NCBI GenBank assembly: GCA_964498095.1
Contig: CAZCFY010000002.1
Span: forward strand, 74,298 to 138,297
Length of the DNA: 64,000 nucleotides
Source of the DNA: an uncultured Bdellovibrionales bacterium
GTDB taxonomy: Bacteria > Bdellovibrionota > Bdellovibrionia > Bdellovibrionales > SG-bin7
Direction: 5' to 3'
Shown here: positions 2,068-53,902 of the stretch, piece after piece
Layout: every line of letters begins with the position of its first letter
Numbering within the stretch: the first letter of the stretch is position 1
Position numbers and translations under genes: made by a program
The notes under the pieces: model-generated
Told to the model about the DNA's origin: nothing
The model's input: only the letters and a program-made list of their open reading frames with translations
The model's database searches: none

Positions 2068-2136
2068 GTATAGCTTGGGTATAGACATCGACCCCATTTC
2101 ACTTTTAAATATCTTATAGGAATCACGGAGGATGAA

Positions 2137-3079: not shown

Positions 3080-3146
3080 TGACTGTTCCTTTCGTAGTTC
3101 AAGTTTAAGACTAGACGACTCTGAAGCGCGGAAGTATAATTTTTTT

Positions 3147-4797: not shown

Positions 4798-4818
4798 GCT
4801 TTTAGTCAGGGAAACTCC

Positions 4819-4856
4819 CCTAAAGTTTGGTCAAGGGTGACTAAACCTAAAGTTTG
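4819..4856 (+). promoter_or_regulatory. 11-nt direct repeat (cctaaagtttg x2) in the ftsQ-ftsA spacer
   Basis: Identical 11-mers at 4819-4829 and 4846-4856, 27 nt apart, ending 10 nt before the ftsA ATG. Function unknown. Confidence 0.25.
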
Positions 4857-4865
4857 AGGGCAAGG

Positions 4866-6113: not shown

Positions 6114-6133
6114 GGCAAAAAAGGGGGACTTAA

Positions 6134-19764: not shown

Positions 19765-21768
19765 TTATTTTTTGTTAAGGAACAATTCAACCGTTTTTAC
19801 GCGATTTTCGTCGACAATGACACGTTCCTGGGCTTCCGCACCGGTCCATTTGTCCACAGCTCTAATCACGAGTTCTTTATTTGCTGGGACGGCATAGCGC
19901 TTAAATGGTGGGGTACCAGGAATTTCGTCGCGGTTGATGTAAACGGTCGCATTGTTCGGAAAAATAGTTATATTAAGGTAGCCTTCGGCTGTCTTTTGCA
20001 GAAGTGCTTGTAAAGAGTCACTTTGCTTATCTGCAGTATATTCCGTGCGGTAAATTAAATAACCGGCGAGTTTAAGTGTGATTGCATGCGTACGTTTAGC
20101 TTCTAATTCAATAATCGCCGGTGTAATTTTGCCTATATCCTTGTCGTTAACGATAATCATAGCGCCCGGTGGGTTACTAGTAACGGAGACTTTATACGGC
20201 TCTGCTTTTGAAGGCGAAGCGGTCGTTTGACATTCCAACGGGGGGTTGGGTTGTTCACAAATATTGGCAGTCGTTGGCGAGGTCTTAGTGTTCACTATAG
20301 TAAAAAACCTTGAAACTTTGTCGGGGCCAGTCCAGAGAAGTCCTCCAACGAGGACTATGAACAGCATTAATGTAGGTCCGGGTATGTAGGAGGTCAGGGC
20401 ATTAAAGGAAATACGATTTGTGTCGCGCGCTCCACCTGAGTTCGTCATCGAGGAAGCCCGTGTGGTTGTCTGCGACTGCTTCCTTTTAGCATTAATAATC
20501 TGTTGCGAAAGATTTTCGGTGATCGCGCCCTTACCGGCGGCGCCGATCTTTTCGTGCGACGTGATATTTCGCTGTTGAACTGCTGAGTCGACAAGGTCTT
20601 TAAAGCTAAAATCGGTATCTGTCGTGGTGTTTTGTCGAATGGGTGTTGTGGCCGTAGCGTTGGTCGCACTAATAGCGTTGGTGGCAGTCACTGACTGCAT
20701 CACGGTTTTGCCGTCAAATCTGTTATCAACTGGCGTTTGCGTTGAGGTTAGGGTGCGTGTTGTTTCATCGTTTCCGCTCACGGGAACGTCGGCGAGATCA
20801 ATTTTAGAGTACTCTACTAATTTGTTTCTTATAGTTACGATTTCGTCGGAAAATAACGTTTTTATAACATTGCCAAAATCGTGTTGCGAGAAAGTCGGGT
20901 AATTCTTGTTTAGAAAAGTATTTAAGTCGCGATGAAGTGCAGCTGCGGTTTGATAGCGAAGGTTGCGGTCCTTTGCCAAAGCCTTATTTACAATTTTTTC
21001 TAAGTCCTCTGGAACTTTTGGATTTATTTTTCGCAGCGATGGCACCTGACACTCTCGGATTTTCCTAAGAGTATTCATTTCGTTATTAGCCATAAACAAA
21101 CGGTCGTTAGCGACGAGTTCCCACAAGACGATTCCTAACGAAAAGACATCGGTGCGTAAATCGACTTGAATGCCCTCGGCTTGTTCGGGGCTCATGTAAC
21201 CAAATTTGCCCTTTAGCGTTCCGGCCTTGGTGGCTTCGATTTGGGTTTCGGTTTTGGCGATACCAAAGTCGACGATTTTAATTTCGCCTTCGTAGCTCAT
21301 CATGACGTTTTGCGGACTGATATCACGGTGAGTGATATTCAGCGGGCGTCCGCTCGTACCATCGAGGCAGCGGTGCGCGCTGTCAAGGCCGGCGGCGGCT
21401 TCGCGAATGATAAACAAAATTTGATCAAGACTAAACGACTTGTTGCTTTGTTTCATCCGGTTAATTATTTGCCGCAAGTTTTTTCCTTCGACGAAATCCA
21501 TGACGAGGAAAAACTGACCCTTTTCAACTCCAAACTCAAAGATCGAGACGATGTTGCTGTGTTTTAAGTTAATGGCGATTTTCGCTTCTGACTTAAACAT
21601 TTCCACGAATTCAGGATTGTCGGAGTATTGCGGGAGAATTCTTTTTATGGCTACGTACTTGTTAATGCCGCTGGCACCGGGGGCGCGTGCGAGATAAATC
21701 TCGGCCATACCGCCGGTGGCGATCTTTTCTAAAAGAATATATTTCCCAAATCTTTCAATCTGCGTCAC
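19765..21768 (-). CDS. Hanks-type Ser/Thr protein kinase with a TM helix and two C-terminal PEGA domains
   Basis: VAIKRI, catalytic loop HRDISPQNVM, DFGIAK and YMSPEQ. Ser/Thr/Asn-rich linker, then TM helix LMLFIVLVGGLLW. PEGA-like segments VSVTSNPPGAMIIVNDKDIG and LNITIFPNNATVYINRDEIPG. Confidence 0.9.
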   Translation of the reverse strand: MTQIERFGKYILLEKIATGGMAEIYLARAPGASGINKYVAIKRILPQYSDNPEFVEMFKSEAKIAINLKHSNIVSIFEFGVEKGQFFLVMDFVEGKNLRQIINRMKQSNKSFSLDQILFIIREAAAGLDSAHRCLDGTSGRPLNITHRDISPQNVMMSYEGEIKIVDFGIAKTETQIEATKAGTLKGKFGYMSPEQAEGIQVDLRTDVFSLGIVLWELVANDRLFMANNEMNTLRKIRECQVPSLRKINPKVPEDLEKIVNKALAKDRNLRYQTAAALHRDLNTFLNKNYPTFSQHDFGNVIKTLFSDEIVTIRNKLVEYSKIDLADVPVSGNDETTRTLTSTQTPVDNRFDGKTVMQSVTATNAISATNATATTPIRQNTTTDTDFSFKDLVDSAVQQRNITSHEKIGAAGKGAITENLSQQIINAKRKQSQTTTRASSMTNSGGARDTNRISFNALTSYIPGPTLMLFIVLVGGLLWTGPDKVSRFFTIVNTKTSPTTANICEQPNPPLECQTTASPSKAEPYKVSVTSNPPGAMIIVNDKDIGKITPAIIELEAKRTHAITLKLAGYLIYRTEYTADKQSDSLQALLQKTAEGYLNITIFPNNATVYINRDEIPGTPPFKRYAVPANKELVIRAVDKWTGAEAQERVIVDENRVKTVELFLNKK

Positions 21769-25387: not shown

Positions 25388-26113
25388 TTGCATAAACAAA
25401 TTCCCCTATTGAAAAAAGAAAAGTCGGAGTATGGTGGTGAGCTACTGAAAACGCGTGGTGGCCGCAAAGGGCCGCGTCCGTTGTCGACGGATTACTCTAT
25501 GCATTTGGTGTTGCGTTCATCTTTGGCCAAGGGCAACTGGTCTTTTAAAAATCCACGCAATGAAAGAGAGATTAAAAAAATAATTAAGAAATTTTCGCTA
25601 AAGAATGGCGTAAAAATAATTTCCTATGCCATTGTCGGTAACCATATTCACCTTCAAATTAAATTATCCAATCGCTATACATATAATCGATTTATCCGCG
25701 CGATAGCGGCCGCAATTATGATGGCCGTGACGGGCGTTTGTCGATGGCGCCCGTCGAAGGAAAAATTTTGGGATCTTCGGCCTTTCTCCCGAATCGTAGA
25801 GAGCCTCCGTGCCGTGAGAAATTTGGAAAATTATATTTATCTCAACCGCATCGAAGCGGCCGGCTTCTCTCGCAGCGAAGCGCGCGAGATTTTGCGTCGA
25901 GAGGGGCGGGCGCGGCCGGCGGGGTTTGTGGAAAGGTGCCCAGGGCCGCCAGCTGGGATTGTGGAAATGGGCCACGAGCCGTCTGCTGGATTTGTGGAAA
26001 GGTGCCCAGGGCCGCCAGCTGGGATTGTGGAAATGGGCCACGAGCCGTCTGCTGGATTTGTGGAAAGGCGCTATGGGCCCACTTTGTTTGGCGGTCTCTT
26101 TGAAGTTCTTTGA
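25388..26113 (+). CDS. IS200/IS605-type HUH (Y1) transposase-like protein, RAYT-like, with a repeat-encoded C-terminal extension
   Basis: TTG start. HUH motif in IVGNHIHLQIKL. Tyr motif NYIYLNRIEAAG resembles the YIxxNPxxAG of REP-associated tyrosine transposases. The C-terminus is encoded by a tandem repeat. Confidence 0.7.
   Translation: MHKQIPLLKKEKSEYGGELLKTRGGRKGPRPLSTDYSMHLVLRSSLAKGNWSFKNPRNEREIKKIIKKFSLKNGVKIISYAIVGNHIHLQIKLSNRYTYNRFIRAIAAAIMMAVTGVCRWRPSKEKFWDLRPFSRIVESLRAVRNLENYIYLNRIEAAGFSRSEAREILRREGRARPAGFVERCPGPPAGIVEMGHEPSAGFVERCPGPPAGIVEMGHEPSAGFVERRYGPTLFGGLFEVL
25925..26068 (+). repeat. 66-bp tandem repeat, 2 perfect copies plus 12 nt, with an internal 33-bp sub-period
   Basis: 25925-25990 and 25991-26056 are identical base for base (tttgtggaaaggtgcccagggccgccagctgggattgtggaaatgggccacgagccgtctgctgga). 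A third copy starts at 26057 and diverges after 12 nt. It encodes GFVERCPGPPAGIVEMGHEPSA twice. Confidence 0.95.
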
Positions 26114-36516: not shown

Positions 36517-36704
36517 ATAAATAAGAATTACTTGTACCGATTTGAGGCGCTTAACTTGGCGAACTCCTATACGCTGTCTAAAAAGTTTTTTGCCGCAAGT
36601 TCTATACGCGGTCCATCAAGGTATTATCTTTGCACAACTTTATGCCGATAGGACTAACAGCCAGGGATAGGCAGAGTTTCAATTTGAGACCGGGAAATTG
36701 GGGA

Positions 36705-37421
36705 ATGAAGTTGGCTTTCAAAATATCTTTGGTAACGATTGTATTGCTTGGAATAACTACCTTTTATTCCAACTGCACTCCCCAACACATGGTAGGGGCG
36801 CCGCTCTCAAGTATCAACACCGCCGAAATACTTCAAAGCTTACAAAATCAATCCACAACGATTTTAAGTCAGCGATGTGCTTCTTGCCACAACGACAATT
36901 CGACCAATTCCAGCCTTAAAGATATTTTGGATACGCAGTATTTGATTACGGCCGGTTATATTGATCCCGGTTCGCCACAAACATCTCTTCTCTATATGAA
37001 CGTCGTCGATAAAATTATGCCTCAAGGCGGTCCCGAACTCTCCGTCGAAGATATTGCGGTGTTACGCGACTGGATTGCGGCGCTCGGTGGAAATTTTGAT
37101 ACATTTATTGGTGCTGTTGATGGGCCAACCACTGGCAATACAAATGTTATAGGTACGTTTTTGCAAGTAAACGCAATTTTACAACAGCGCTGTGTTGCTT
37201 GTCATAACGGGCAACGCCGGCCAAATTTAAATTTACCTTATGCCCAACTAATTGCCGAAACAACAGCTGCGGGTCTTCCCTTAATCTCTCCTGGAGAGCA
37301 ATCGAATTCTCGTCTTTATCTCTCTGTGGCCAACAATTCAATGCCACAGGGAAGTCCGCTCACAAATACGCAAAAAGAAATCATCCGCACTTGGGTTGCG
37401 GCAGGAGCTCGTAATGACTAA
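36705..37421 (+). CDS. operon gene A: lipoprotein with two planctomycete-type cytochrome-c-like (PSCyt1-like) CXXCH modules
   Basis: Start at ATG 36705 (MKLAFK). Signal ending FYSNC. Two modules of the form C-x-x-C-H ... S-x-L-Y ... M-P-Q-G ... W-I/V-A-A-G (CASCH at 36876-36890, CVACH at 37191-37205). Confidence 0.65.
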   Translation: MKLAFKISLVTIVLLGITTFYSNCTPQHMVGAPLSSINTAEILQSLQNQSTTILSQRCASCHNDNSTNSSLKDILDTQYLITAGYIDPGSPQTSLLYMNVVDKIMPQGGPELSVEDIAVLRDWIAALGGNFDTFIGAVDGPTTGNTNVIGTFLQVNAILQQRCVACHNGQRRPNLNLPYAQLIAETTAAGLPLISPGEQSNSRLYLSVANNSMPQGSPLTNTQKEIIRTWVAAGARND

Positions 37422-39105
37422 ATTGCGTCGCACCTTAGGTTTTATTGGTTTATTCCTGTTACTTAGTTTGAGTTTCCATAACTGTATTTCGGGTTCGTCT
37501 GCGGATTCGAGCGCGGGGACGGGAAGTAATGGTGGTAATGTTATTCCCGCGTGTACTTACTCAAGCAATCCTGCACCCGTTCTCCAAGGAATTTTTACCG
37601 ACAGTGCTTTGACTAATTCCGTTTCGTCGATTTCTTACCGCGTAGGCATGGGAAATGATGCCGGCAATGAGGCTACTCGCACATTGTATTTGCGTGCCAA
37701 CTCCGGCGATAATTATAGCAGTGTAATATCTGTGAACTGTAATGGTGGTACTGGAATTGCCGCTAACTGCGATATTAATAATGGTAATCTCCGTGTGCGG
37801 ATTAATCCCGATCAAGGCGCTGAGTGTTTATCGGGCTCCACCGCAATACAAATCAATGTGAGTGATTTGGTAAATGCTCCAGGTTGTCAAAACCTTGCAG
37901 CGCAGTCGAACTCCTTAACTTTGAATGTGAATCTTACCAATGGTTGTCTGCCGACAATTCGATTAAATCCTCCCAATCAATATTCCTTTGGACAAATGGG
38001 GGCAAGTGTCGCCATCGACGGCAATTGGGCTGTTGCCGCAACTCCGGGTGATGAGCTTTCTGGGGTTGATGCCGGAGCTGCACATGTTTTTCAGCGCAAT
38101 GTAAATCAATGGACTAATTTTCAAAGAATCGTTCCAAATAGCATTGCTGCCGGCGCTTCGCTGGGCGCGGTTGCAATTTCTGGGACGACAATGGTCTTGG
38201 GCGCAAACTTATATGCCAATGGCACAGGCCGGGCCTGGGTTTACCAGTTTAGCGGAACTTCATGGGTGTTGGCCGCAGAACTTAATGCTCCCACACCGAT
38301 TGTCGGCGAAAAATTTGGTACTTCTGTAGCAATTTCAAATGGGGTTATTGCCGTCGGCGCACCCAGAAACTCTGCTATGGGGTCACAGTCCGGCGCGGTC
38401 TATTTATTTTCAGGATCTAATTTTGCTTCCGTGCAGACTGTTTATCCTTATATTGATGGCAATATCGCCGGTGATACTCTTGTTCAGGGCGAGTTTGGTA
38501 CGAGCGTCTCGTTGAATGGAACTTCATTAGTTGTGGGTGCGCCATTTCCTAATTCCTCTATTACACGCAGTGAAGCCGTCTACTTATTTAGACAAAATGG
38601 AAACTTTGCCGCCGCCCAAAAGATTTCCAATAGTGATGGCGGCAGTACAAAGAGATTTGGGGCAGCGATTCTTCAAAGTGGTAACTCTTTAATTATTGGC
38701 GCGCCATTTTACTCTTCTAATATGAATAGTGAAGTCGGCCGAGCCTATGTTTATTCGCGCGCGGACACGGCCGCAAACTTTAGTTTTACCCGCCAATTAA
38801 ATCCCGGCGATCCCGGTGTAAAAGATCACTTTGGACAATCCGTTTTCTTGAGTGGAAATTATTTTTATGTCGGCGCCCCCGATAAAACTTTCGATCAACT
38901 TGCCAAGGTTGGAGCCGTTTATATTTTCAATAGTGATGGGTCACAAAATTTCAAAGTGCGCTCCCGCCGCGCCGACCGCGAAAATGACTCCTTTGGCGTT
39001 TCGATTGGTGTTTCTAATGGGTGGATGATTTCCGGCGCCTTTAATGACGAAAGCGACGTCAATTACCTGGATGCTGGCTCCGTATATATGGTGGATGTGC
39101 CGTGA
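37414..39105 (+). CDS. operon gene B: lipoprotein with a Cys-containing N-terminal region and a 7-repeat FG-GAP-like beta-propeller
   Basis: ATG 37414 overlaps the gene A stop by 8 nt. Signal ending SFHNC. Seven repeats of the pattern FG.SV...G....VGAP......G.VY.F (e.g. EKFGTSVAISNGVIAVGAP...GAVYLF). Confidence 0.65.
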   Translation: MTKLRRTLGFIGLFLLLSLSFHNCISGSSADSSAGTGSNGGNVIPACTYSSNPAPVLQGIFTDSALTNSVSSISYRVGMGNDAGNEATRTLYLRANSGDNYSSVISVNCNGGTGIAANCDINNGNLRVRINPDQGAECLSGSTAIQINVSDLVNAPGCQNLAAQSNSLTLNVNLTNGCLPTIRLNPPNQYSFGQMGASVAIDGNWAVAATPGDELSGVDAGAAHVFQRNVNQWTNFQRIVPNSIAAGASLGAVAISGTTMVLGANLYANGTGRAWVYQFSGTSWVLAAELNAPTPIVGEKFGTSVAISNGVIAVGAPRNSAMGSQSGAVYLFSGSNFASVQTVYPYIDGNIAGDTLVQGEFGTSVSLNGTSLVVGAPFPNSSITRSEAVYLFRQNGNFAAAQKISNSDGGSTKRFGAAILQSGNSLIIGAPFYSSNMNSEVGRAYVYSRADTAANFSFTRQLNPGDPGVKDHFGQSVFLSGNYFYVGAPDKTFDQLAKVGAVYIFNSDGSQNFKVRSRRADRENDSFGVSIGVSNGWMISGAFNDESDVNYLDAGSVYMVDVP

Positions 39106-41417
39106 GAAATTTACTTTTTATATTGTTGATTCTTGTAACCACACCCGCTTTAGCGCTGGATATTTTTGGGCGTGATGCCGCCAGTGGCGGGCAGGGCTCA
39201 CGTAATGGTCTAGTGGCACTTTACAATTTTAAAGGTACGCGCGCTAATGGTGCCGTTGTTCCCGCAAATATAGTCGCCGACGAATCCGGCGTAGGAACAC
39301 CACTGGACCTCACCATCACTGACCTTACGCGCGCCACGCGTACTTGTGCAGAGTTTGTATTTGATCCGGTTTCAAATCAGCTACAAACGGTTTGTAGTAT
39401 TGATTTCTTAGCTGAGGGTGCCGTTGCGAAAAGTTTATCCGACGCCACAAAAATTACTTCCCAATGCCAATCGACAAACGAAATGCAGGTTGAAGTTTGG
39501 TTGAAAAATGACCGGGATGATGATCCACGTATCCGCAATATGATGGTGCCTCTTAAAATCGTTACGATGAGCTCGCCTACCGGTAGCAGCGAAACAATCA
39601 ATGGAAGCACTACATATCGCGGCGGATCCAATGACGCCAATTTCTTTTTAGGTTATAACTATAATGATGCCGCTCAATATTTAGCGTCAGTGAGATCTGG
39701 TCCCCGCCAAACGCGTGCAGCTACGATGAATGATGGCTTGGTAGAGTTTAACCGTTATCGCGTGGAAAATGGCCATACCGTAGCAACCTCCGGCGATAAC
39801 GCTGATTTAAAAATTTTGGAAAAAGAGAAATTCCAGCATGTGATCTTTAACCGTAATTCGCGGGGGGAAGTTCGTCTTTACGTAAGTTCAGCCAGTTTAA
39901 CGGCACAGGGTACGGTTCCTGTTTTACGTCAACAAGTGGCGGGAGCCGCCAACGCTAATTTTTCGGGTTGGGGAAGTAATCTTGTTTTGTCTCTCGGTAA
40001 CGAGCCTACTTTTAGCGATGCCACCGCGCCGCGTATTTCTAATAATAGCGCAAACCGCACGGAAAGCCGTAATTGGCGCGGTCAAATTTATATGCTCGCG
40101 GTTTACTGCCGGGCCCATAGTGACCAAGATATTTTGGGTGCCGCGGCGCCGAGTGCTAACTTTTTATCGATTCCACCAAATCCGAATGTGACTCTTACAC
40201 CGCTACACACGCAAGCGGCGCAACTCTACACTCGTATTACTGGCGTAAAAATTCCCGCAACGGCGCCAATTATTTCTGGCATAAATGATGCCCGCGTTCC
40301 GCAGCAAACAGTCACACGTGGAATGGTTCAATATCTTCAAGATGGCCAACCTTTGCAGGCGGCACTATTGGCGACCCAGGAAGACAGCTTTTATAATACA
40401 ACCGTAAGAGATTTTGCAAAACGAATGTCGACACGCGATGAGACAGTTAATACTCCACTTAATGATCTTGTCGCTACCGTTATCGGAGTTGCGGCTAACG
40501 AAAAAGACGCCCGCCTTTTATTAACTGGAAATTTCTATTATATGGGAGATCCCGCGACCACGGCGTTACCCAATGATTTGCAGCGCGACCTTTTGACTTC
40601 TAACAACCACTACGAATCCATGGAAAGAGTAGGGTATAACTTGCGCCGGGTATTAAAACGCATGGATGGCCAAAAAGTATTTACAGGTACAACAATTGTT
40701 GATCATCCAGATCCCGCTGGTCTAATTACCTCACGGGCTTTTATGGCCGCTCACGCTGTGGCGGGAACAAATCGCCGGCTCGTAGAATTCGCATTCCGCG
40801 AATTTATGTGCATACCAATCGCGGGCTGGGCAGATTCCACGGGGCCAGATAATTATATTGGCCGCGACGTGGACCGCTTCCCTGGCGGCGATCATGCGAA
40901 ATTCTTAACGACCTGCCGAAGCTGTCACTCAAACATGGATGGCTTGCGGGGCGCCTTCGCTAAATTTAATTTTGCCGACAATTTCGTTAAATACGCACCG
41001 CTGATGCCCGTAGTAACCGACCCTGACGACGAAGGTGCCACTAACATGTGTCAAAACCCCACGGGAATCGCGTGTAAAATGAATCGCAATTTCGACACCT
41101 TTCCTGGAGGTTATGTCACGACTGATGACAGCTGGGTAAATAATGCCAATAGAAATTCAAATGGCGCTTATTTTGGTTGGGGTTCGACTCTAAGCGGGCG
41201 CGGCGTGCGGGCACTTGCAAGCACCATGGCGGCGACGAAATCTTTTTCTAGTTGCATGGCCAAGCGCGCCTTCCGTTCGGTTTGTAAACGCGAGGCCACA
41301 AGTTTTGATTCCGCGCTCATCGATCAAGTAAGTTTGGATTTTGTAAATGAACAATATAATTTAGAGAGATTATTTGCGCGTATTGCAATTTCGCGCGAGT
41401 GCATGGGGGATTTATGA
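39102..41417 (+). CDS. operon gene C: secreted LamG-like plus DUF1588/PSD-like protein with one CXXCH
   Basis: ATGA-type overlap with gene B. SPase-I signal PALA/LD. LamG-like end motif NWRGQIYMLAVYCRAHSDQDILG. C-terminal CRSCHSNMDGLRGAFAKFNF resembles the C..CH...DP.G motif of planctomycete DUF1588-type proteins (from memory, unverified). Confidence 0.55.
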   Translation: MRNLLFILLILVTTPALALDIFGRDAASGGQGSRNGLVALYNFKGTRANGAVVPANIVADESGVGTPLDLTITDLTRATRTCAEFVFDPVSNQLQTVCSIDFLAEGAVAKSLSDATKITSQCQSTNEMQVEVWLKNDRDDDPRIRNMMVPLKIVTMSSPTGSSETINGSTTYRGGSNDANFFLGYNYNDAAQYLASVRSGPRQTRAATMNDGLVEFNRYRVENGHTVATSGDNADLKILEKEKFQHVIFNRNSRGEVRLYVSSASLTAQGTVPVLRQQVAGAANANFSGWGSNLVLSLGNEPTFSDATAPRISNNSANRTESRNWRGQIYMLAVYCRAHSDQDILGAAAPSANFLSIPPNPNVTLTPLHTQAAQLYTRITGVKIPATAPIISGINDARVPQQTVTRGMVQYLQDGQPLQAALLATQEDSFYNTTVRDFAKRMSTRDETVNTPLNDLVATVIGVAANEKDARLLLTGNFYYMGDPATTALPNDLQRDLLTSNNHYESMERVGYNLRRVLKRMDGQKVFTGTTIVDHPDPAGLITSRAFMAAHAVAGTNRRLVEFAFREFMCIPIAGWADSTGPDNYIGRDVDRFPGGDHAKFLTTCRSCHSNMDGLRGAFAKFNFADNFVKYAPLMPVVTDPDDEGATNMCQNPTGIACKMNRNFDTFPGGYVTTDDSWVNNANRNSNGAYFGWGSTLSGRGVRALASTMAATKSFSSCMAKRAFRSVCKREATSFDSALIDQVSLDFVNEQYNLERLFARIAISRECMGDL

Positions 41418-42055
41418 AAAGAAAAATAATGAGCCTAACTTTTGTGGCGCTCATACTCGGGGCTATGGGCTCAGGAATATTTTTCTACCAAGGCTGTGGC
41501 AATGAAATGGCGTCAGGAAATTCAGCAACGATGTGTACCCCAGGAGCCGCCGGTGCACCTATCGACAAAAACTATGATGTTGTTCCGGGAGAGCAAACTG
41601 TATCGGTCGCTTACGGCCGCCCGCTTTTAGATTCCATGGTAGCGTGTACCGGAATAGGCCAACCAAGTACCCGCACGCTAAATGAATGGACAGCCCGCAA
41701 TCAGAGTTTATCTGAGTACGGGAGTCTAACGGAGGTTTCGGGCGCCATGATGATGGCTGTAGCCGCCGTTGCGGGAGAAGTTTGCCGCGATCTATTGGAT
41801 AAGGAAATTCCGCTGACAAACGGGTCACGCGGTATTTTTGCCAATGTTGATTTTGCAAAAGGCGGTAGCATGTCAGTTGCTGAAATTAATTCGGCGGCCG
41901 ATATGCTTGGAATTTCGTGTTGGCAGCGCTTGCCGACTTTAGATGAGAAATCAATGATCGAAACCGCAGTTAATCAGCTCAGCGCAAGTACAGAGCTGGG
42001 AGCTTTAAGTTTATGTACTTCCATGCTTGGCAGCTTAGCTGCCATTGCGCAATAG
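41414..42055 (+). CDS. operon gene D: small lipoprotein (possible DUF1595-like fragment)
   Basis: ATG 41414 overlaps the gene C stop (ATGA). Signal ending FFYQGC. No confident family. Confidence 0.5.
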   Translation: MKRKIMSLTFVALILGAMGSGIFFYQGCGNEMASGNSATMCTPGAAGAPIDKNYDVVPGEQTVSVAYGRPLLDSMVACTGIGQPSTRTLNEWTARNQSLSEYGSLTEVSGAMMMAVAAVAGEVCRDLLDKEIPLTNGSRGIFANVDFAKGGSMSVAEINSAADMLGISCWQRLPTLDEKSMIETAVNQLSASTELGALSLCTSMLGSLAAIAQ

Positions 42056-42068
42056 GATCGGGGATGAT

Positions 42069-43556
42069 ATGAAACTTTTTGGAAAATATAAATCTATTCG
42101 CGAGATGCTAGAAAAAGAAGACTCTAAGGAGCTTGCCAAGCGCTTTCCCCATGGCAAGCCCATTACTCGCCGCGATCTCTTAAAAGCGGGTGCCCTGCAA
42201 TTTGCGGCGACCATGACGGCGCCGACTTTATTTGAAATCTTGCTTAACGCCGAAGTGGCCAGGGCCCAGGCGTGTCTACAGGCGCCAACGTTTGTGGGAC
42301 TAAAATTAAACGGTGGGGCGGCGATGCTTGGCAATTTTGTGGCTATGGCGCAAAATCGCGACTACTTATCCACTTACGAGCAATTAGGACTCGGTACGCG
42401 TACGCAAATTTCGGCGCGGGTAACGAATGCGTTTGGAGAAGCTAAGTTTTTTGACGGCTCCCAATTTTTGGCGGGAATTCAGACTACGGCAGCGGCGACA
42501 ACTTTAGCGAGTACTTCATTTGTTGGAATTCCCGTTGCAAGTAATGATGACACCGACCAAAACCCTTTTGACGTTACTTATTTTATAAGTAAGTTTGGCG
42601 TCGTCGGAAATATTTTGCCAAATCTAGGGCGCCGGCAATCATTAACTGGAATTGCGCAACAACCCGCCTTAGCAAAAACGCCGCCGACACCCTTAAGTGT
42701 TGGCAGTCTCGCAGATATCTCCAATGCGCTTTCGGTCCAGGGCAGTCTTGCGGTTTTAAGTGACGCTCAAAAAGTAAGTGTATTTAACGCCATAAATAAA
42801 CTTAGCGAGTCCCAAGCGAGAACTCTCGCCAGCAATACGGGTGGGACGGTTTTACAACAATTGGTAAATCAGGCGACATCACAAAATATGAGTCTGGTTT
42901 CGAGTTCCACAAATGGTATTGATCCGTTGCAGGACACAGCGGTGAGCGCGCGTTTTAATACTATCTGGGCTAATGCTAATAATCAAAATATGCAAAATCA
43001 AAATGCGGGTGCCATGGAAAGAGTTTTTGGCACCATGGTTTACAACACCTTAAGAGGAAATGCCGGAACCTGCAATATGGATATGGGTGGTTATGATTAT
43101 CACGGGCAAGGACGGGCCACTCAAGACGCGCAGGATTTAGCGGCAGGACGCGTGATGGGACAAATTTTAGAATCGGCGGCAGCGATGCAAAGACCAGTCA
43201 TGCTAATGGTAACAAGTGACGGCGCGGTCGGAGCTCCCGCCGGTTCGGGCCCCGGTGCTGCTTTTACTTCGGACCGGGGACAGGGAGGATGCATATATTT
43301 ATTTGCATACCATCCGTTACGACGGCCGCCAGCTACGGACCGAAATGGCCGAGCTGATCATCAAGTTGGACAGTTAGCGGGACAAGCCGCGGTTGATACA
43401 ACTTTTTTAACGGGTAATGATCCCGCTCTGGCAGGACTTGCGGCTTTTGCGAATTTTGCCTCGTTTGCGGGAAATCTTGGCGCGTTCTTTTCGATTTCAG
43501 GAAATGTTTGGAATCAAGATCAAGTGGAACAAGTAGTACGTTTGAGGAAGGTATAA
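42069..43556 (+). CDS. operon gene E: Tat-signal protein, DUF1501/DUF1552-like (alkaline-phosphatase/sulfatase-superfamily-like)
   Basis: ATG 42069 with GGGGA upstream. Twin-arginine motif ITRRDLLKAGALQFAA followed by ARAQA. GGYDYHG resembles the GGWDTH motif I associate with DUF1501 (unverified). Confidence 0.55.
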   Translation: MKLFGKYKSIREMLEKEDSKELAKRFPHGKPITRRDLLKAGALQFAATMTAPTLFEILLNAEVARAQACLQAPTFVGLKLNGGAAMLGNFVAMAQNRDYLSTYEQLGLGTRTQISARVTNAFGEAKFFDGSQFLAGIQTTAAATTLASTSFVGIPVASNDDTDQNPFDVTYFISKFGVVGNILPNLGRRQSLTGIAQQPALAKTPPTPLSVGSLADISNALSVQGSLAVLSDAQKVSVFNAINKLSESQARTLASNTGGTVLQQLVNQATSQNMSLVSSSTNGIDPLQDTAVSARFNTIWANANNQNMQNQNAGAMERVFGTMVYNTLRGNAGTCNMDMGGYDYHGQGRATQDAQDLAAGRVMGQILESAAAMQRPVMLMVTSDGAVGAPAGSGPGAAFTSDRGQGGCIYLFAYHPLRRPPATDRNGRADHQVGQLAGQAAVDTTFLTGNDPALAGLAAFANFASFAGNLGAFFSISGNVWNQDQVEQVVRLRKV

Positions 43557-43564
43557 TTTATTAA

Positions 43565-45196
43565 ATGAAATTTATTTTAGGGCTGAGTTTTATTTTTATT
43601 TTGGTTGTGGGGTACAGTAATTGTTCTCCCGATCACGAATTAGGTTCGGCGTCGTCTACAGGTACTAATTATTGGAGCTGCGGCGATGCGCTCGATAATT
43701 TGTCACTATTTAGCCGAACCTATCAGCCATTTTTAATGAATAACTGTGCGGCTTGTCACTCTGGCGGTGGACCGGGACCTGGGGCATTTGCGTCGAGTGG
43801 AGTGCAGTTGGCTTACGATAGCTTTTCAGCTCTCGGATTTTCGCGCATTAATGCGCGCGCCTTAGACGGCCACAGTACCGGATCGGGGCCACAACATACT
43901 TCGTCTATTAATTCGATTACTTCTTACTATATTGAAGGAATAGATACTATTGAACGGTGCCAAGCGACGGGAACAGATCAATTGACGCAAGACCAAGACG
44001 ATCCCTCCCGCTGGCGTACGCGCAGTAAACCCATTAACCCGAATATTGATAGCCCGACAACAGTATCTTGGGATTTATCTTCGGAAATTATTCCAAATGG
44101 AAATTACAACGCTGCGGACTTTGCGGGCGTTACTCTTTCGGCGCGCGTGGAGATCTTTCAGCGCCCTGGCGTTTTTGCATATGTAATTTCTAATCCTACT
44201 CTATCGACGTCAAACTCCGACATTCGAATTGAGAGTTTGCTATTTAAAGTCAACGGTACGTCAAGCCCCGCACAACGGGCCTTTTATTTCGTGGACCGCG
44301 GCATCCGTATTGGTACCGAGCGAATTTCCGGTGGCGCCATGGTGATCTTGGGTGACGTGCGTACCACAGATGTACTGTCTGTTTCCATTGGTAAATTAGA
44401 GCGGGTAACGTTGCCGCCGCCCATTTTGGGACCCGAAGTAAGCTTTGGATTAGCAAGCCAAACAGTGAATGAAGACTATCAAATTGTGAATATCCCCGTG
44501 GTACTTTCTAAGCCGTGGGATGTTCCAACTTCGGCAGAAATTGTTTTTGGCACGGATACTACAATTAAAGATCAATGTTGCCGCACGACGATTAATGATA
44601 ATGGGCAAACAATAAATGTGAATCACTTCGACCGCGATATACAAGATTATGACATCGATCCTCTTTTGCCTATTAATAGCCGATTATTGTATGAGGCGGT
44701 AAATGTTCGCGGCCGCTATCTGGTTACCTTTGCCATTGGTGAAACCAGCAAAAACCTACGAATTAAAATTGTTCATGATGATCGTGATGAGCAAAATGAA
44801 GTTTTGCACTTACGAATTGATGCCGCGAAACTAAATGGTTTACGCGCGGCCAATACTTTGCAGGACTTCCGTCTAACAATTACCGATAACGACGAACCTT
44901 TTGCGGGAACGGCTTTATCTTATTCGGCACTTCTGAATAATGGTGGAATTTTGGCGAACGAATGTTTGCGTTGCCATAACTCGGTACTTAACCGTGGCGG
45001 CTACGACATAACCAATTACGAGCAGCTTGTGCGTAAAGCTATCTTAAGACCTGGAGACCCCACGAACAGCTTAATGTTTTTACGGATGGACGCAAATATT
45101 CCAGGCCTAGATCCAATGCCCTTAACGGGTTTGATCGACGCTTCTCAACGTTTTGACGTAAAACAATGGATCCTTCAGGGCGCACCTAACAACTAA
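43565..45196 (+). CDS. operon gene F: lipoprotein with an N-terminal CXXCH, a central Calx-beta-like domain and a C-terminal PSCyt1-like CXXCH module
   Basis: Signal ending GYSNC. CAACHSGGGPGPG. Calx-beta-like FAIGETSKNLRIKIVHDDRDEQNEVLHLRID...FRLTITDND. C-terminal CLRCHN...PGDPTNSLMFLRM...MP...WILQGA. Confidence 0.6.
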   Translation: MKFILGLSFIFILVVGYSNCSPDHELGSASSTGTNYWSCGDALDNLSLFSRTYQPFLMNNCAACHSGGGPGPGAFASSGVQLAYDSFSALGFSRINARALDGHSTGSGPQHTSSINSITSYYIEGIDTIERCQATGTDQLTQDQDDPSRWRTRSKPINPNIDSPTTVSWDLSSEIIPNGNYNAADFAGVTLSARVEIFQRPGVFAYVISNPTLSTSNSDIRIESLLFKVNGTSSPAQRAFYFVDRGIRIGTERISGGAMVILGDVRTTDVLSVSIGKLERVTLPPPILGPEVSFGLASQTVNEDYQIVNIPVVLSKPWDVPTSAEIVFGTDTTIKDQCCRTTINDNGQTINVNHFDRDIQDYDIDPLLPINSRLLYEAVNVRGRYLVTFAIGETSKNLRIKIVHDDRDEQNEVLHLRIDAAKLNGLRAANTLQDFRLTITDNDEPFAGTALSYSALLNNGGILANECLRCHNSVLNRGGYDITNYEQLVRKAILRPGDPTNSLMFLRMDANIPGLDPMPLTGLIDASQRFDVKQWILQGAPNN

Positions 45197-45243: not shown

Positions 45244-46761
45244 TTGCAATTGTTTATAACTCTACTGTTATTTTTAGGTTCTATCGGCGCTAAGGCGGAG
45301 CCCTGGATGTCCAATCGCTACGCGCAGAATTGTTCTTCTTGTCATAGTCCGGGGCGGCTAAATTTGCCAACCAAAGACCGCCGCTGTACTTTGTCTTGCC
45401 AGGCCTGCCACGTAAATCCTAGCGGTGGCGGCATTCGCAATAGTTATGGAGTGTGGAATCAGCAGAGATGGTTACGCTCGTTTAAAACCGAATTTTTGGA
45501 AAGTAAAAATACGCCTGCGCCCTTTCGTTCCCAGGTGTGGGGCAGCAATGTAGGTAAGAATAAGAAATCTGGCGGGAAAGACTCTAAGGAGACGCAAAGA
45601 GATCAGCGCGACAAAAAAGATTTTCCAATTTTATATATTGTCAAAGAAATTGACTACCGCGAAAAAGACTATGACCGTGGAGATAATCAAGAGCTAATTA
45701 CCGCAAAATCCATGAGTGAGTTCTTGGCCCGAGTTCCCGAAGAGGATCCGTATATCCATGAACGCCGCCAATGGGTTTTTGCTGGCGGGAACTTGCGTTT
45801 ACTAAATTTTGATCAGAAGGTGACGGCGCCGTCAGGAACCGTAACTTCCGGCAATTATACTTTGCCCATGTCGTTTGACGTAGGAGTGCGCTTAAAGCCA
45901 TTTGTTAAAAAGAATCTAAATTTGGTTTTTGAGCACCGCTATTATAATTATCCCGGTCAAAACGGCAACGTGCGCACGAGTCCCGATTGGATTACGGCGG
46001 CGGATGGATCAAAATCACGTTCGGCTTATGTGCTCATTGATGATTTACCTTTTGCGAGTTACGTGCAGTATGGTCTTTATCGGCCCCTGATGGGCATGAA
46101 TACTCCAGATCACACTTCGCTAGCGCAAAGCATGATGTACACCTACGATACCTCCGATGGCTTAACGAATATTCCCGCCGACGCGGCATTATACGTGGCA
46201 AAAGCGCTGTCGATAGGGACTTCTCCTAACGTACCATTTGCCAATGTTCACCTCATAAAACCTGTGGATAATCCTTCTTTCCCCAATTTTTCGCAAGACG
46301 ACGGCTTCGCGGTGAACTTGGGAGGGCGCTTCGTGCGTTATGGTTTTTCGGCTATGCTGTCCTACTGGAATACAAAAGCTAAAATCACCGGTTTTGAAGT
46401 GAATAAAAAAATGATTGGCCTAAACTTCGGTGGAACCTGGAACAATTTCATCGCTAACGTGGACCTTACGCAAATCGAAAAAGATTATACCGGTGGAACC
46501 AGCGACAAGGGACATGTCCAAACCCTGGAATTAAAATACCGCATGTGGCGTGAAATCTATGCGCAAGTTAATGTGGCGCGCGCCAATACGACCCGTACTC
46601 TCAAAGACGGTACCGCGAGCGAATTTATGTTTGGGTTAAAGTCTTTCTTAACTCCCGGCGCGGAATTTGAAATTTTAAACGTGGCACGCGAGGATGGCTC
46701 AGCTTCCGGTGGGAAGTATTCGCGCAGTCAGTGGCAAATGATGTTAAATCTCTTTTTCTAA
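45244..46761 (+). CDS. operon gene G: outer-membrane beta-barrel-like protein with two N-terminal CXXCH motifs
   Basis: TTG start with GGGGGAG 6 nt upstream. SPase-I signal GAKA/EP. CSSCH and CQACH within the first about 45 mature residues, then a Lys/Asp-rich linker. The long strand-like remainder ends in an aromatic beta-signal (WQMMLNLFF). Confidence 0.6.
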   Translation: MQLFITLLLFLGSIGAKAEPWMSNRYAQNCSSCHSPGRLNLPTKDRRCTLSCQACHVNPSGGGIRNSYGVWNQQRWLRSFKTEFLESKNTPAPFRSQVWGSNVGKNKKSGGKDSKETQRDQRDKKDFPILYIVKEIDYREKDYDRGDNQELITAKSMSEFLARVPEEDPYIHERRQWVFAGGNLRLLNFDQKVTAPSGTVTSGNYTLPMSFDVGVRLKPFVKKNLNLVFEHRYYNYPGQNGNVRTSPDWITAADGSKSRSAYVLIDDLPFASYVQYGLYRPLMGMNTPDHTSLAQSMMYTYDTSDGLTNIPADAALYVAKALSIGTSPNVPFANVHLIKPVDNPSFPNFSQDDGFAVNLGGRFVRYGFSAMLSYWNTKAKITGFEVNKKMIGLNFGGTWNNFIANVDLTQIEKDYTGGTSDKGHVQTLELKYRMWREIYAQVNVARANTTRTLKDGTASEFMFGLKSFLTPGAEFEILNVAREDGSASGGKYSRSQWQMMLNLFF

Positions 46762-46774
46762 CAGAGTTAATACA

Positions 46775-48097
46775 ATGGAAGAAAAAATTAAGTCTATTCT
46801 TGAATGCCCTGTCTGCCGCAAATCCGAATTAAATTGTGAACATAAGTTTCCACTCATCAATGGAATTCCCTGGGTGTTTAAATCTACGGAGTCTACTCTT
46901 CTCCAGTGGCAGGCGCGGACAACCAAGCTCTTACAAATGTGCCTGGTGCAAATGGCGCAGCTTGATGATGAACTGTTAAAAGTAGATTTGTTACCAGAAA
47001 CCAAAGAGCGCCTCAAAATATTACGCCAAGCGATCGACGAAAATGAAAAGTTTTTGCAGAAGTTTTTGAGCCCCCTATGGCCAAAAAGCCAATCGGAGGT
47101 CGCGCCCAGTTTGGCGCAGGCGTTAGAAGAAAAAGTAGCCTCGCAACAGGCCATAGAAAGTTATTTTAATAATGTTTTCCGTGATTGGGCTTGGCGTACC
47201 GGGGAAAACGAAAAGAGCTTAGAAGCCATTATGGGAGTCCTACCCAAAACATTTAAACCAAAAAAGATGGTTGTTTTAGGTGCCGGAAGTGGCCGTTTGA
47301 CAGTGGATTTGCAGACAGAATTAGGAATTGAAGATGCCTTTGCCGTCGATATTAATCCGTTTCTTCTATTCCTCTTTCGAGACCTGATGGCCGGAAAGTC
47401 TCATGAGCTTTGGGAAATTCCTATTTCGCCCTTGTCACTTGCCAATACGGCGAAAAAGCAAACCTTAAAGACTTCTGGAAAAACAAAAGGCAGTGTACAG
47501 TTCCTATTTGCCGACGCCACAAATTTGCCGTTTAAGAAAAAATCCGTCGATTGCATTTTGACTCCTTGGTTTATCGATATTATCAAACAAGATTTGCGTC
47601 AGTTAATGAGGCGTATTAATAATACGCTTGAACCCGGGGGGCATTGGATTAATTTTGGTCCCTTGGGCTTTAGACACTTTGCCAATGCCGAAAATTATAG
47701 TGTCGAGGAAATCGCCAGCTTACTTGATGAAGAGGGATTTAAACTCATAAAGAAGGATATTACGCCAGTTCCTTACCTCAGCTCGCCACTCAGCGGCCTT
47801 GAGCGCAGCGAAAAGGTTCTAATTTTTTTGGCGGAAAAGAAAAAGGAGTCCAAGTCCGCCGAAAAATACTCACCGTTACCAGAGTGGATTATGGACCCCG
47901 CGAAACCTATAAAACCAAATCGTGATTTAAAATACGAAATTTCGCGCCATCATCTTGGTTTTCAAATTCTGAGTTGCATCGACGGCAAAAACTCAATCCA
48001 CGGTATTGCTGGTATGGTGGCTAAGCACTATGGGGTAAACCCGGCCCAGGCCCAAGAAATCGTGACGGGATTTTTAATTGAGAAGTTTGAGGACTAA
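46775..48097 (+). CDS. operon gene H: cytoplasmic Trm112-like zinc ribbon + class I SAM methyltransferase + PqqD-like C-terminal domain
   Basis: No signal peptide. CPVCRKSEL...CEHKFPLINGIPW (Trm112/UPF0434-like). SAM motif I VVLGAGSGRLTVDL, then FADATNLPF and LEPGGHWINFGP. C-terminal IDGKNSIHGIAGMVAKHYGVNPAQAQEIVTGFLIEKF resembles PqqD/RRE domains. Confidence 0.6.
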   Translation: MEEKIKSILECPVCRKSELNCEHKFPLINGIPWVFKSTESTLLQWQARTTKLLQMCLVQMAQLDDELLKVDLLPETKERLKILRQAIDENEKFLQKFLSPLWPKSQSEVAPSLAQALEEKVASQQAIESYFNNVFRDWAWRTGENEKSLEAIMGVLPKTFKPKKMVVLGAGSGRLTVDLQTELGIEDAFAVDINPFLLFLFRDLMAGKSHELWEIPISPLSLANTAKKQTLKTSGKTKGSVQFLFADATNLPFKKKSVDCILTPWFIDIIKQDLRQLMRRINNTLEPGGHWINFGPLGFRHFANAENYSVEEIASLLDEEGFKLIKKDITPVPYLSSPLSGLERSEKVLIFLAEKKKESKSAEKYSPLPEWIMDPAKPIKPNRDLKYEISRHHLGFQILSCIDGKNSIHGIAGMVAKHYGVNPAQAQEIVTGFLIEKFED

Positions 48098-50174: not shown

Positions 50175-50939
50175 TCAGATATTTGCTTTAATTCCAGAGT
50201 CCTTATTGGGAACACCATCGCAAGAGAAATTCCAAAATCCGACCTCATGATATGATCCGCCCATTGCGGTGCAGATGCTATGACCATTATTAGCCTCGGC
50301 AGGATTGTCGTCACACCCATAAGAGAAGCCGCATGTCGGCTCCATGGTTAAGCGTCCTTGACAGGTAGATTGGCGAAGGCAATTTATAGATACTTTGCGT
50401 TCAATGTAGACAGTGCCATCACCTTCGGGTGCGGTTGTTGAGCTGGGCGAGCGTCCGCAAGGTTCTGTTGCGGCGATGGCGCCGGGGCCATCTTTTAATC
50501 TTACCGAGCCAATATTTCGCGAGGCTACGATTCCAAATCCGCGCTTTTTGTAAGTAATCGACATGTCGTATGTGGCTGGAGTTTTAGTATTTCTTTTACT
50601 TAGTTCGTAACTCTGGATTTCAATATTGGGTTTACCGTATTTGTCGATTAAATTGCCAAGTGGGCTTGCTTTAATTTTCTCTAAGACGTTGCTCTTGTTT
50701 TCGAGTTGTTGATTGGCTATCTGCAACCCAGCAAATGTTTGATTACAGACATCAACGTCACCAAGAAGTCTTGAAACTTCCACGCCCAAAGAAACGGCGG
50801 TTAGCCCTGACTCCAAATCCTGAATAAATTTTTGCTGGTTTATCATCAGTGTTGTTGTCGCTGTGGCGATTAGTAAACCGACACCTAAAGCAATCACTGT
50901 ACTTATTAATGAAAAACCTGATTGCGATTTAAGGATCAT
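50175..50939 (-). CDS. prepilin-like protein A (type IV pilin/pseudopilin N-terminus lacking Glu+5, Cys-rich C-terminus)
   Basis: AAGGGGG Shine-Dalgarno upstream. Leader MILKSQSG / FSLISTVIALGVGLLIATATT matches the prepilin-peptidase pattern G/F-S-L-I, but position +5 is Ser. There are 9 Cys in the C-terminal about 110 aa. Confidence 0.6.
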   Translation of the reverse strand: MILKSQSGFSLISTVIALGVGLLIATATTTLMINQQKFIQDLESGLTAVSLGVEVSRLLGDVDVCNQTFAGLQIANQQLENKSNVLEKIKASPLGNLIDKYGKPNIEIQSYELSKRNTKTPATYDMSITYKKRGFGIVASRNIGSVRLKDGPGAIAATEPCGRSPSSTTAPEGDGTVYIERKVSINCLRQSTCQGRLTMEPTCGFSYGCDDNPAEANNGHSICTAMGGSYHEVGFWNFSCDGVPNKDSGIKANI

Positions 50940-52907: not shown

Positions 52908-53750
52908 TCATCTGCAAACATAGCCGGTACCAGCTTCCGTCATCCCCCAAACAACACCATCTCCTGAGGAGTCTATGTACTTTGTATAAAGAGGAACTGC
53001 TTGCCAAGTCGTACCCGGAGGACATCCTCCAGACGACGAACTTGGCGGCGCCGAACAAATCGGTGCGCCCGTGGACGAAAGACCGGTAACCACTTGACCG
53101 GTAGGGCATGACCCCCCAGTGGAGCCAGAAACTATACATTGAGGGGTTCCATCCAAATTAATCCCAATCATAGTTTGTCCCGCTGAACATGAACCCAGTG
53201 TACCTCCGCTTGAGATTGCCGCGCATGAGGCTATGACTGGGGGAGCCGTGATTACAAAAAGAATGCGAGGGCCGTCCACGTTAATAAGTCTTCCGGTCAA
53301 ACTTCCTTTTTCTGTAGCTGCTATTTTAAGGTGAAATTCGTAAGGAGACGAATTATTGAGTCCACCAGTGCTTTTATTATAGGGTTTAAAAAGTCTTATT
53401 CCGGATATGCTGATGTAGCGGCTATTTAACGCGTAATTATCCACCAATGATTTCAAAGGTGTGCCGTTAATGGCGTCGGTCAAAATAGTATAAGTTCCAC
53501 TGGCGTCAGAAGCTAAATTTACTGTCTTCCCCGAAAACGTAGCATTGCAATTTACAGCGTTAGCTAGCGTTTGGATCAATTCCTGTTTCATGTTGATTGA
53601 TTCGATCTTTGCTTCCAAGTAACGAATCTGTTGGGAACTTGAAATCAACTGCGAAGCGATAGCTGTCATCAGGATCATTCCAATGCCAGCGGCAACCATA
53701 ACTCCAAGTAAGCTAAATCCTGCCCGACTCTGCAGATTTTCCCTCGACAT
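52908..53750 (-). CDS. prepilin-like protein B (lacks Glu+5; C-terminal Cys-bounded repeats)
   Basis: ATG 53750 with GGGGA upstream. Leader MSRENLQSRAG / FSLLGVMVAAGIGMILMTAIA has Gly at +5. C-terminal repeats GSCSAGQTMIGINLDGTPQC and GSCPTGQVVTGLSSTGAPIC. Confidence 0.6.
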   Translation of the reverse strand: MSRENLQSRAGFSLLGVMVAAGIGMILMTAIASQLISSSQQIRYLEAKIESINMKQELIQTLANAVNCNATFSGKTVNLASDASGTYTILTDAINGTPLKSLVDNYALNSRYISISGIRLFKPYNKSTGGLNNSSPYEFHLKIAATEKGSLTGRLINVDGPRILFVITAPPVIASCAAISSGGTLGSCSAGQTMIGINLDGTPQCIVSGSTGGSCPTGQVVTGLSSTGAPICSAPPSSSSGGCPPGTTWQAVPLYTKYIDSSGDGVVWGMTEAGTGYVCR

Positions 53751-53902
53751 GCCTGTCCCCAATTCCTTTATATTATTTTATAATATCCATTGGCATTTAT
53801 TAAGCAATTTTAAGTGAATTGCCTTAGACTCAGCCAATGCACTTTCTAATCGATGATTTGTATCAGAATGAGATGCCCGGGGGCAGATACATCGCCGGCA
53901 AA

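Follow-up and report, generated by a model that had tools for sequence, protein, structure and literature searches.

The gene and its protein family

The window analysed here is a stretch of 64,000 nucleotides from an uncultured Bdellovibrionales bacterium (NCBI GenBank assembly GCA_964498095.1, contig CAZCFY010000002.1, positions 74,298 to 138,297 of the forward strand). It encodes a 505-residue protein in which an N-terminal segment with two CXXCH motifs, predicted to bind c-type hemes, precedes a porin-type beta-barrel. The open reading frame (ORF) occupies positions 45244-46761 of the forward strand, starts with TTG, and yields the translation quoted in a first-pass annotation that had been made from the letters alone. 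That annotation described a signal peptide, two CXXCH motifs separated by 17 residues (H34 to C52), a Lys/Asp-rich linker, and a terminal LNLFF, all of which are found in the translation. It also estimated about 400 strand-like residues; the barrel is there, with 16 strands, but it is shorter, about 328 residues (178-505). The parts of the gene are as follows.

45244..46761, forward strand: gene of the fused diheme cytochrome-porin (505 residues, heme part predicted), with the stop codon at 46759-46761
45244..45297, forward strand: signal peptide, residues 1-18, MQLFITLLLFLGSIGAKA / EPW, cleaved at A-K-A / E-P-W according to our reading of the sequence
45298..45543, forward strand: predicted N-terminal heme segment, residues 19-100, better conserved than any other part of the protein
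45331..45345, forward strand: predicted heme motif 1, C30-S-S-C33-H34, 100% conserved and in register with the heme motif of the cytochrome-porin Cyc2
45385..45387, forward strand: C48, a fifth, unpaired Cys within RRCTLSCQGCH, present in 100% of a 228-sequence alignment
45397..45411, forward strand: predicted heme motif 2, C52-Q-A-C55-H56, 100% conserved and located on a 22-residue insertion relative to Cyc2
45544..45624, forward strand: variable linker rich in Lys, Asp and Ser, residues ~101-127, of ~0 to >100 residues in homologues; predicted local distance difference test (pLDDT) 51-55
45625..45774, forward strand: conserved, partly helical pre-barrel segment of ~50 residues (~128-177), YDRxDxxE...EFLxRxxxxDPYRxER, with D168 and P169 invariant
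45775..46758, forward strand: porin-type beta-barrel of 16 strands, residues 178-505, ending in the beta-signal LNLFF (AlphaFold2, Foldseek)
46081..46197, forward strand: long L3-like loop, residues 280-318, in the interval between strands 5 and 6 of the AlphaFold2 model, with a near-invariant YRPxFGxxxPDH290xSL

The protein belongs to a sizeable family. A collection of 5.8 billion proteins contains 197 homologues, none of them named, and a profile search of 1.84 billion representatives retrieved 494 sequences at E <= 1e-3, of which 156 at E <= 1e-30. The named sources (Bdellovibrionales, Pseudobdellovibrionaceae/Bdellovibrionaceae, Oligoflexales, and the cultured Pseudobacteriovorax antillogorgiicola) fall into two classes of the phylum Bdellovibrionota and into no other phylum. 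Genome records with a member of the family include CP060220.1 and, for P. antillogorgiicola, GCA_004346105.1. Existing resources hardly recognise these proteins. No Pfam or NCBIfam model scores above threshold for the protein of the window, which has only weak heme-motif matches at residues 25-59, and sequence searches of the PDB, run both with the protein itself and with the profile of the family, detected no solved structure. We found nothing in the literature that ties Cyc2 or diheme cytochrome-porins to Bdellovibrionota, and nothing on cytochromes of Pseudobacteriovorax or on GEGP diheme proteins.

We counted motifs in 187 full-length homologues (36-73% identity) and measured column conservation in the alignment of 228 sequences. 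The signature CxxCH-x13-CxxxCxxCH is present in 180 of the 187 proteins, with identical spacing in 178 of these, and 181 of the 187 have two CXXCH motifs. The exceptions to the signature are mostly gene calls truncated at the 5' end, together with one H56→Y and one C48→F substitution (the latter in member P0186). The residues C30, C33, H34, C48, C52, C55, and H56 are all 100% conserved. The first-pass annotation had made its heme reading depend on the conservation of both CXXCH motifs, and they turn out to be invariant in the homologues; their fixed spacing in nearly all full-length members shows that they are not there by chance. Exactly five Cys occur in most mature proteins (164 of 180), which leaves C48 without a disulfide partner. 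The consensus of the heme segment is AEPWxSNRYAQNCxxCHxPGRxN...RRCTLSCQGCHVNPxGGGxRNxYGxWNQQRWLRSF...PAP..Q. It contains no conserved His or Met other than those of the motifs. At the level of at least 95%, the only further conserved His or Met positions in the protein are M209, H290, and H502, all in the barrel part. H290 (97%) lies in the L3-like loop, where P281 (99%) and G284 (95%) are also strongly conserved.

The matches to known cytochrome models are weak and confined to the heme motifs. The model NF041762 (GEGP motif-containing diheme protein), which has 359 positions, gives the protein of the window 13.9 bits against a curated cut-off of 300 bits; it is weakly matched by 31 of 53 members, at the two CXXCH alone (best E 0.005). 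Members of the family also weakly match models of MtrC/MtrF and of decaheme cytochromes at these motifs. With its conserved CXXCH motifs and predicted export, the N-terminal region is, as far as sequence can tell, the signature of a Sec-exported c-type cytochrome.

Predicted barrel and position of the heme segment

The full-length AlphaFold2 model, built on an alignment of 53 sequences, has a mean pLDDT of 84 and a predicted template modelling score of 0.84. It places 16 long strands within residues 178-504, has very short extracellular loops L4-L8, and is of low confidence at residues 12-29 and 49-54. Foldseek searches of the PDB return Omp32, PorB, and OmpF with probability 1.00 and template modelling (TM) scores of 0.57-0.72, normalised by the target. 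The best match is Omp32 (2fgq, E 1.5e-12), and the others include PorB, VhChiP, OmpF, and OprP (2o4v, E 6e-10). The model and the porin matches thus bear out the closed barrel that the first-pass annotation had expected of a structure prediction. General 16-strand porins (Omp32, PorB, OmpF, OprP) are the best structural matches of the family, with Foldseek probability 1.00, E between 1e-12 and 1e-9 and target-normalised TM scores of 0.51-0.72. They share with it a long loop at the L3 position; the family differs from them by its heme segment and by its much shorter L4-L8. At the sequence level, no porin family model of Pfam was matched at E up to 0.1, and no solved porin was matched by the family profile at E up to 10.

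The modelled confidence of the heme segment depends on the presence of the barrel. Residues 60-100 have a pLDDT of 85-90 in the full-length model and of 41-59 when modelled without the barrel, where residues 19-177 average 53.5. This suggests docking of the heme segment on or within its barrel, an arrangement that has been proposed for Cyc2 as well. Docking is also favoured because the segment lacks potential ligands beyond its motifs, while the His and Met of the barrel are strongly conserved. Several observations weigh against this interpretation. The alignment behind the barrel-less model was shallower (23 versus 53 sequences), and the drop concerns confidence, not coordinates. H502 is replaced by Asn in the protein of the window itself, and the alternation of residues in the sequence puts M209 on the hydrophobic face of its strand. 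Finally, a plug has no need of the long, variable, and charged linker between the heme segment and the barrel, which would suit a tethered periplasmic domain.

Relation to Cyc2 and other cytochrome-porins

The first-pass annotation regarded the fusion of a barrel with a cytochrome segment as unusual. There are precedents, namely Cyc2 and Cyc572, both fused monoheme cytochrome-porins, and to this extent the novelty was overstated. In Cyc2, which occurs in Acidithiobacillus ferrooxidans and Mariprofundus ferrooxydans PV-1, a signal peptide and a single CXXCH precede an OprO/OprP-like barrel of 16 strands (Keffer et al. 2021, PMC8406198). It is defined by the motif AXPXFAR[Q/K][T/Y] upstream of the heme motif, by PXL after it, and by a length of at least 365 residues (PMC8406198). 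Its heme is experimentally established, OprP is its published structural analogue, and its cytochrome part has been modelled as a plug of the periplasmic mouth, so that Fe2+ must enter the pore (PMC8406198). Cyc572 of Leptospirillum is an outer-membrane porin with an N-terminal CXXCH, i.e., a monoheme cytochrome-porin fusion (PMC10654088), and the barrels of the two fusions have 16-17 strands (PMC8406198, PMC10654088).

For comparison we scanned a genome collection for a DNA pattern, back-translated from the motif as published, and obtained 87 full-length Cyc2 ORFs (at least 365 residues). They come from Mariprofundus, other Zetaproteobacteria, Acidithiobacillus, Nitrospira, lineages related to Chlorobiaceae, and others, and every one of them has exactly one CXXCH. 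A bait search with synthetic peptides of the Cyc2 motif gave only fragments of 53-85 residues.

The family and Cyc2 resemble each other in overall design. In both, a single polypeptide of at least 365 residues comprises, in the same order, a signal peptide, an N-terminal cytochrome region, and a 16-strand porin domain like that of OprO/OprP that ends in an aromatic residue; in both, the proposed location of the heme segment is the periplasmic barrel mouth, and a c-type cytochrome partner is encoded nearby. The family differs by its two CXXCH motifs, the additional C48, the variable charged linker, and the pre-barrel segment of ~50 residues. Cyc2 is found in known iron oxidisers, whereas the family is found in Bdellovibrionota and is known from sequences and models. 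The rare members P0209 and P0312 (~360 residues, 65% identical, from independent sources) are exceptions to the presence of two heme motifs. They have one motif, AEPWFVNRFxExCxHCHVNPxGGG, joined nearly straight to strand 1, and lack exactly the 22-residue second unit as well as most of residues 65-175. Judged by their predicted parts, these minimal monoheme members have the architecture of Cyc2. Cyc572, which we compare through its published description, is also a porin with an N-terminal CXXCH, but a monoheme one.

We aligned the profiles of the family and of Cyc2 with hhalign. The local alignments match 125 C-terminal columns of the barrel (93.5%, score 61.8, E 2e-7) and also put the two N-termini in register (score 30.5); no reversed or column-shuffled control scored above 19.1. 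The global alignment of the two profiles runs collinearly through 372 columns (96.9%, score 55.1, E 3e-10), and ten reversed or block-shuffled controls do not exceed 35.2. It pairs the signal peptide and heme motif 1 with those of Cyc2, leaves residues ~39-64, which include heme motif 2, as an insertion, and pairs the RNxYG that follows heme 2 with the LNxFG of Cyc2. Because the intact CXXCH block by itself reaches 43-52 in such alignments, we scored its flanks separately. The upstream flank (positions -12 to -1 relative to the first Cys) is similar to that of Cyc2 when in register (z = 3.2, p ~0.004), with a score of 8.1 against -9.4 ± 6.4 for 256 other CXXCH contexts (top ~2%) and 37.5 for Cyc2 with itself. 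The residues common to the family and Cyc2 are Ala at -12 (kept in 86% of the family), Pro at -10 (92%), a hydrophobic residue at -8, a small one at -7, a basic one at -5, and an aromatic one at -4; the Pro, basic, and aromatic residues are at the same offsets as in the upstream motif of Cyc2. The distance between the cleavage site and the first Cys is also equal, the heme motif beginning 12 residues after cleavage.

The two groups could nonetheless be the products of independent fusions. A porin of Bdellovibrionota would then have gained its diheme peptide independently, and the likeness to Cyc2 would reflect the shared constraints of a signal peptide, a CXXCH, and a 16-strand barrel. Several results point this way and count against kinship. 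Searches of hidden Markov models (HMMs) against sequences are insignificant in both directions (10-18 bits, with at most 17.7 bits for the Cyc2 HMM), and the score of the isolated CXXCH block means that a match of the motif is not specific. The invariant F-A-R of the Cyc2 motif PXFAR[Q/K][T/Y] is lost, the family having P-W-[LIM]-[SAG]-[NTS]-R-[YF]; instead of PXL, the family has H-x-P-G-R-x-N after heme 1; and there is no similarity to Cyc2 downstream of heme 1, where the flank has z ~0 relative to permuted registers. Our hhalign controls were reversed or shuffled profiles, not an unrelated family of 16-strand porins, and the barrel match may be partly generic porin similarity. A repeated acquisition of heme motifs by porins has also been proposed (PMC10654088). 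The collinearity of the global alignment with its clean controls, the equal distance from cleavage site to Cys, the upstream flank, and the pairing of RNxYG with LNxFG argue against independent fusions, which we consider an unlikely origin, albeit one that keeps appreciable weight. Hence, a distant relationship to Cyc2 is probable, but the family lies outside Cyc2 as defined.

With the MtrCAB, MtoAB, and PioAB systems the family would share the principle of an outer-membrane barrel that houses hemes for electron transfer across the membrane. These systems consist of separate proteins with 26 strands and ten hemes, whereas the family has one protein, 16 strands, and two predicted hemes. We rejected membership in MtrB/PioB because of this difference in strand number and because there is no match to the Pfam model MtrB_PioB.

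What distinguishes the family from Cyc2 and Cyc572 is an unusual combination of a predicted second heme site, an invariant fifth Cys, a variable linker, and the phylum. From the sequence evidence, it is a conserved two-heme, five-Cys, fused cytochrome-porin (with the hemes predicted) that is seen in Bdellovibrionota only, escapes existing models, and has no mention in the literature.

Genomic context and proposed function

The genes around the barrel gene include several predicted cytochromes.

36630-45196, forward strand: cluster of six genes, mostly of uncharacterised exported proteins, syntenic in locus L001 and inverted but adjacent in locus L002
36630..37421, forward strand: diheme PSCyt1-type lipoprotein cytochrome c of 263 residues (Pfam PSCyt1, 30.9 bits), candidate periplasmic partner
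39102..41417, forward strand: protein of 771 residues with one CXXCH (TCRSCHSNMDG) and a weak PSD2/DUF1585 match, in the conserved upstream cluster
43565..45196, forward strand: lipoprotein of 543 residues with two CXXCH, PSCyt1 and Calx-beta, about 47-48 nt upstream of the barrel gene and syntenic in L001
within 36630-45196, forward strand: FG-GAP protein of 569 residues, with FG-GAP repeats
within 36630-45196, forward strand: uncharacterised protein of 218 residues, no features
within 36630-45196, forward strand: Tat-signal protein of 503 residues, ITRRDLLKAG, no family match
46775-48097, forward strand: CARME-like S-adenosylmethionine (SAM) methyltransferase, 13 nt after the barrel gene, with a zinc-ribbon-like N-terminal CPVC...C and a weakly PqqD-like C-terminus

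Promoter and terminator scans around the barrel gene gave counts at chance level; the gap of about 47-48 nt on its 5' side has a single promoter-like site (9/12), and the terminator scan placed no forward-strand terminator on either side of the gene.

We compared ten independent contexts of the gene. An ORF with CXXCH lies within ~2 kb in nine of them and is directly adjacent in six, and such motifs are carried by 18 of the 313 ORFs across all context loci. Homologues of the 263-residue cytochrome adjoin the barrel gene in L002 and L125, and L128 has a comparable diheme lipoprotein cytochrome c; in L125 and L128 this protein (248-261 residues) is the immediate divergent neighbour, and the one of L125 aligns with the 263-residue protein. 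In L126 the gene is adjoined by an HXXSHH and PSD4/PSCyt3 pair. The 771-residue protein aligns with the PSD4/PSCyt3 protein of this locus at the heme site alone (E 0.004), and the 503-residue Tat protein shows no similarity to its HXXSHH protein. The gene of Pseudobacteriovorax is flanked by two small cytochromes, and that of P0209 (L130:10001-11083) is located ~1 kb upstream of an aa3-type oxidase operon, COX2(+cyt c)/COX1/COX3/COX4/SCO1. The CARME-like methyltransferase gene follows or neighbours the barrel gene in L001 and L002 too. A fixed operon with DUF1552/DUF1592-type pairs was rejected, as none of these genes occur in L003, L127, or L130. The recurrent feature of the context is thus some nearby c-type cytochrome, not one particular operon. 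None of the ten contexts has a decaheme gene.

Other observations concern the marine members and the rest of the window. In L003 (9478-9903) and L127 (9521-9943), both marine, a conserved exported protein of ~140 residues without CXXCH is encoded directly upstream of the barrel gene, and paralogous lipoproteins of ~280 residues are encoded downstream. The window also encodes an IS200-like Y1 transposase ORF (25388-26113, forward strand; Pfam Y1_Tnp, E 3e-7), two proteins whose N-termini resemble type IV pilins (N_methyl motif and hydrophobic helix), whose C-terminal parts are Cys-rich and which match no other family (50175-50939 and 52908-53762, both on the reverse strand), and a PEGA-domain fusion of a eukaryotic-type Ser/Thr protein kinase (19765-21768, reverse strand). 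A cell-division and cell-wall cluster (Mur ligase, MurB, Ddl, FtsQ, FtsA, FtsZ; 20-7540, forward strand) identifies the window as chromosomal core DNA rather than a mobile element.

We lean, somewhat more confidently than not, towards reading the protein as a redox module of the outer membrane, built as a distant two-heme variant of the Cyc2 design. A Sec signal peptide would export the polypeptide, and a cytochrome c maturation system would attach two c-type hemes at C30/C33 and C52/C55, with H34 and H56 as the proximal ligands. The beta-barrel assembly machinery (BAM) would insert the C-terminal 328 residues as a 16-strand porin-type barrel. The heme segment (19-100), which has no predicted fold of its own, would most likely dock at or in the periplasmic mouth of that barrel, which might supply the sixth ligands: the candidates are H290 in the L3-like loop, M209, and H502, with C48 as another possible ligand. 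Through the two close hemes, electrons could then move between a redox-active small solute of the pore, coming from outside, and the nearby-encoded periplasmic lipoprotein cytochrome c of PSCyt type. By analogy with Cyc2 the likeliest solute is dissolved Fe2+, which would be oxidised. As a specific claim we regard this as doubtful, and we know of no iron oxidisers among Bdellovibrionota. A further point against heme attachment is that no cytochrome c maturation genes were found in the 64-kb window, where no ORF has the W-rich motif and where Pfam was run on 45 of the larger ORFs, leaving out several at 21.8-24.4 kb and beyond 60.2 kb. We infer that the genome has a maturation system from the co-encoded c-type cytochromes, including the PSCyt1 proteins of the cluster, which score above the Pfam threshold.

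The barrel could also be a mere anchor or diffusion pore, with the diheme segment shuttling on its linker between periplasmic partners, e.g., the neighbouring PSCyt-type cytochromes, and with no transfer across the membrane. The linker keeps this model alive, being charged, of low modelled confidence, and variable from ~0 to >100 residues, and both the very short loops L4-L8 and the fact that the neighbouring cytochromes are periplasmic lipoproteins are in its favour. It accounts less well for a heme segment of 80 residues that has no conserved His or Met for a sixth ligand and is modelled less confidently without the barrel, for conserved His, Met, and Arg positions that would be unusual in a pure anchor, and for the minimal members, whose heme motif is linked almost directly to strand 1. 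On balance we find it unlikely. The conservation of C48, as strict as that of the heme Cys, and its lack of a disulfide partner, in a segment without other conserved His or Met ligands, would also fit a distal ligand. His/Cys heme ligation occurs in SoxAX, TsdA, and DsrJ, and the protein might accordingly be a redox enzyme directed at sulfur compounds or thiols, or one whose low-potential heme serves in catalysis or sensing, rather than a simple iron oxidase. Genes of sulfur metabolism do not recur across the ten contexts, P0186 tolerates Phe in place of C48, and the monoheme members lack this Cys, all of which makes such a role quite improbable.

The first-pass annotation had itself offered a non-heme alternative, in which the CXXCH pairs of an ordinary porin bind a metal or form disulfides. 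The heme attachment is a prediction, and the low AlphaFold2 confidence at residues 12-29 and 49-54 could be taken in favour of this alternative, although low pLDDT is what one expects of a heme site modelled in its apo form. All 228 sequences keep the His that follows each CXXC, the odd number of Cys misfits a disulfide scheme, and the first motif is in register with the experimentally established heme site of Cyc2. Together with the weak matches of multiheme cytochrome models at exactly these residues and with the co-located c-type cytochromes, this makes the non-heme alternative very improbable.

To our knowledge, all fused cytochrome-porins recognised so far are monoheme iron oxidases, which serve as marker genes for iron oxidation. 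We also know of no extracellular electron transfer in Bdellovibrionota, a phylum of predators. If the two-heme redox module is real, it would broaden the structural repertoire of outer-membrane electron conduits, and two stacked hemes could span more of the membrane than one, so that the substrate need not go so deep into the pore. As a tentative possibility, the family would be the first multiheme fused cytochrome-porin, a two-heme wire in a 16-strand barrel, maybe with a His/Cys heme (C48) and ligands from the barrel, that carries electrons of Bdellovibrionota across the outer membrane to or from iron, another solute, or redox compounds derived from prey; it might then represent an evolutionary intermediate between monoheme Cyc2 and multiheme porin-cytochrome complexes. 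Screens based on the Cyc2 motif or on HMMs miss the family, and surveys of electron transfer therefore overlook it. With the cultured host Pseudobacteriovorax antillogorgiicola, it offers a small one-gene system in which to study how hemes are housed and ligated in a barrel, and it would, if our interpretation is correct, indicate a redox chemistry of the Bdellovibrionota cell surface that has gone unrecognised.

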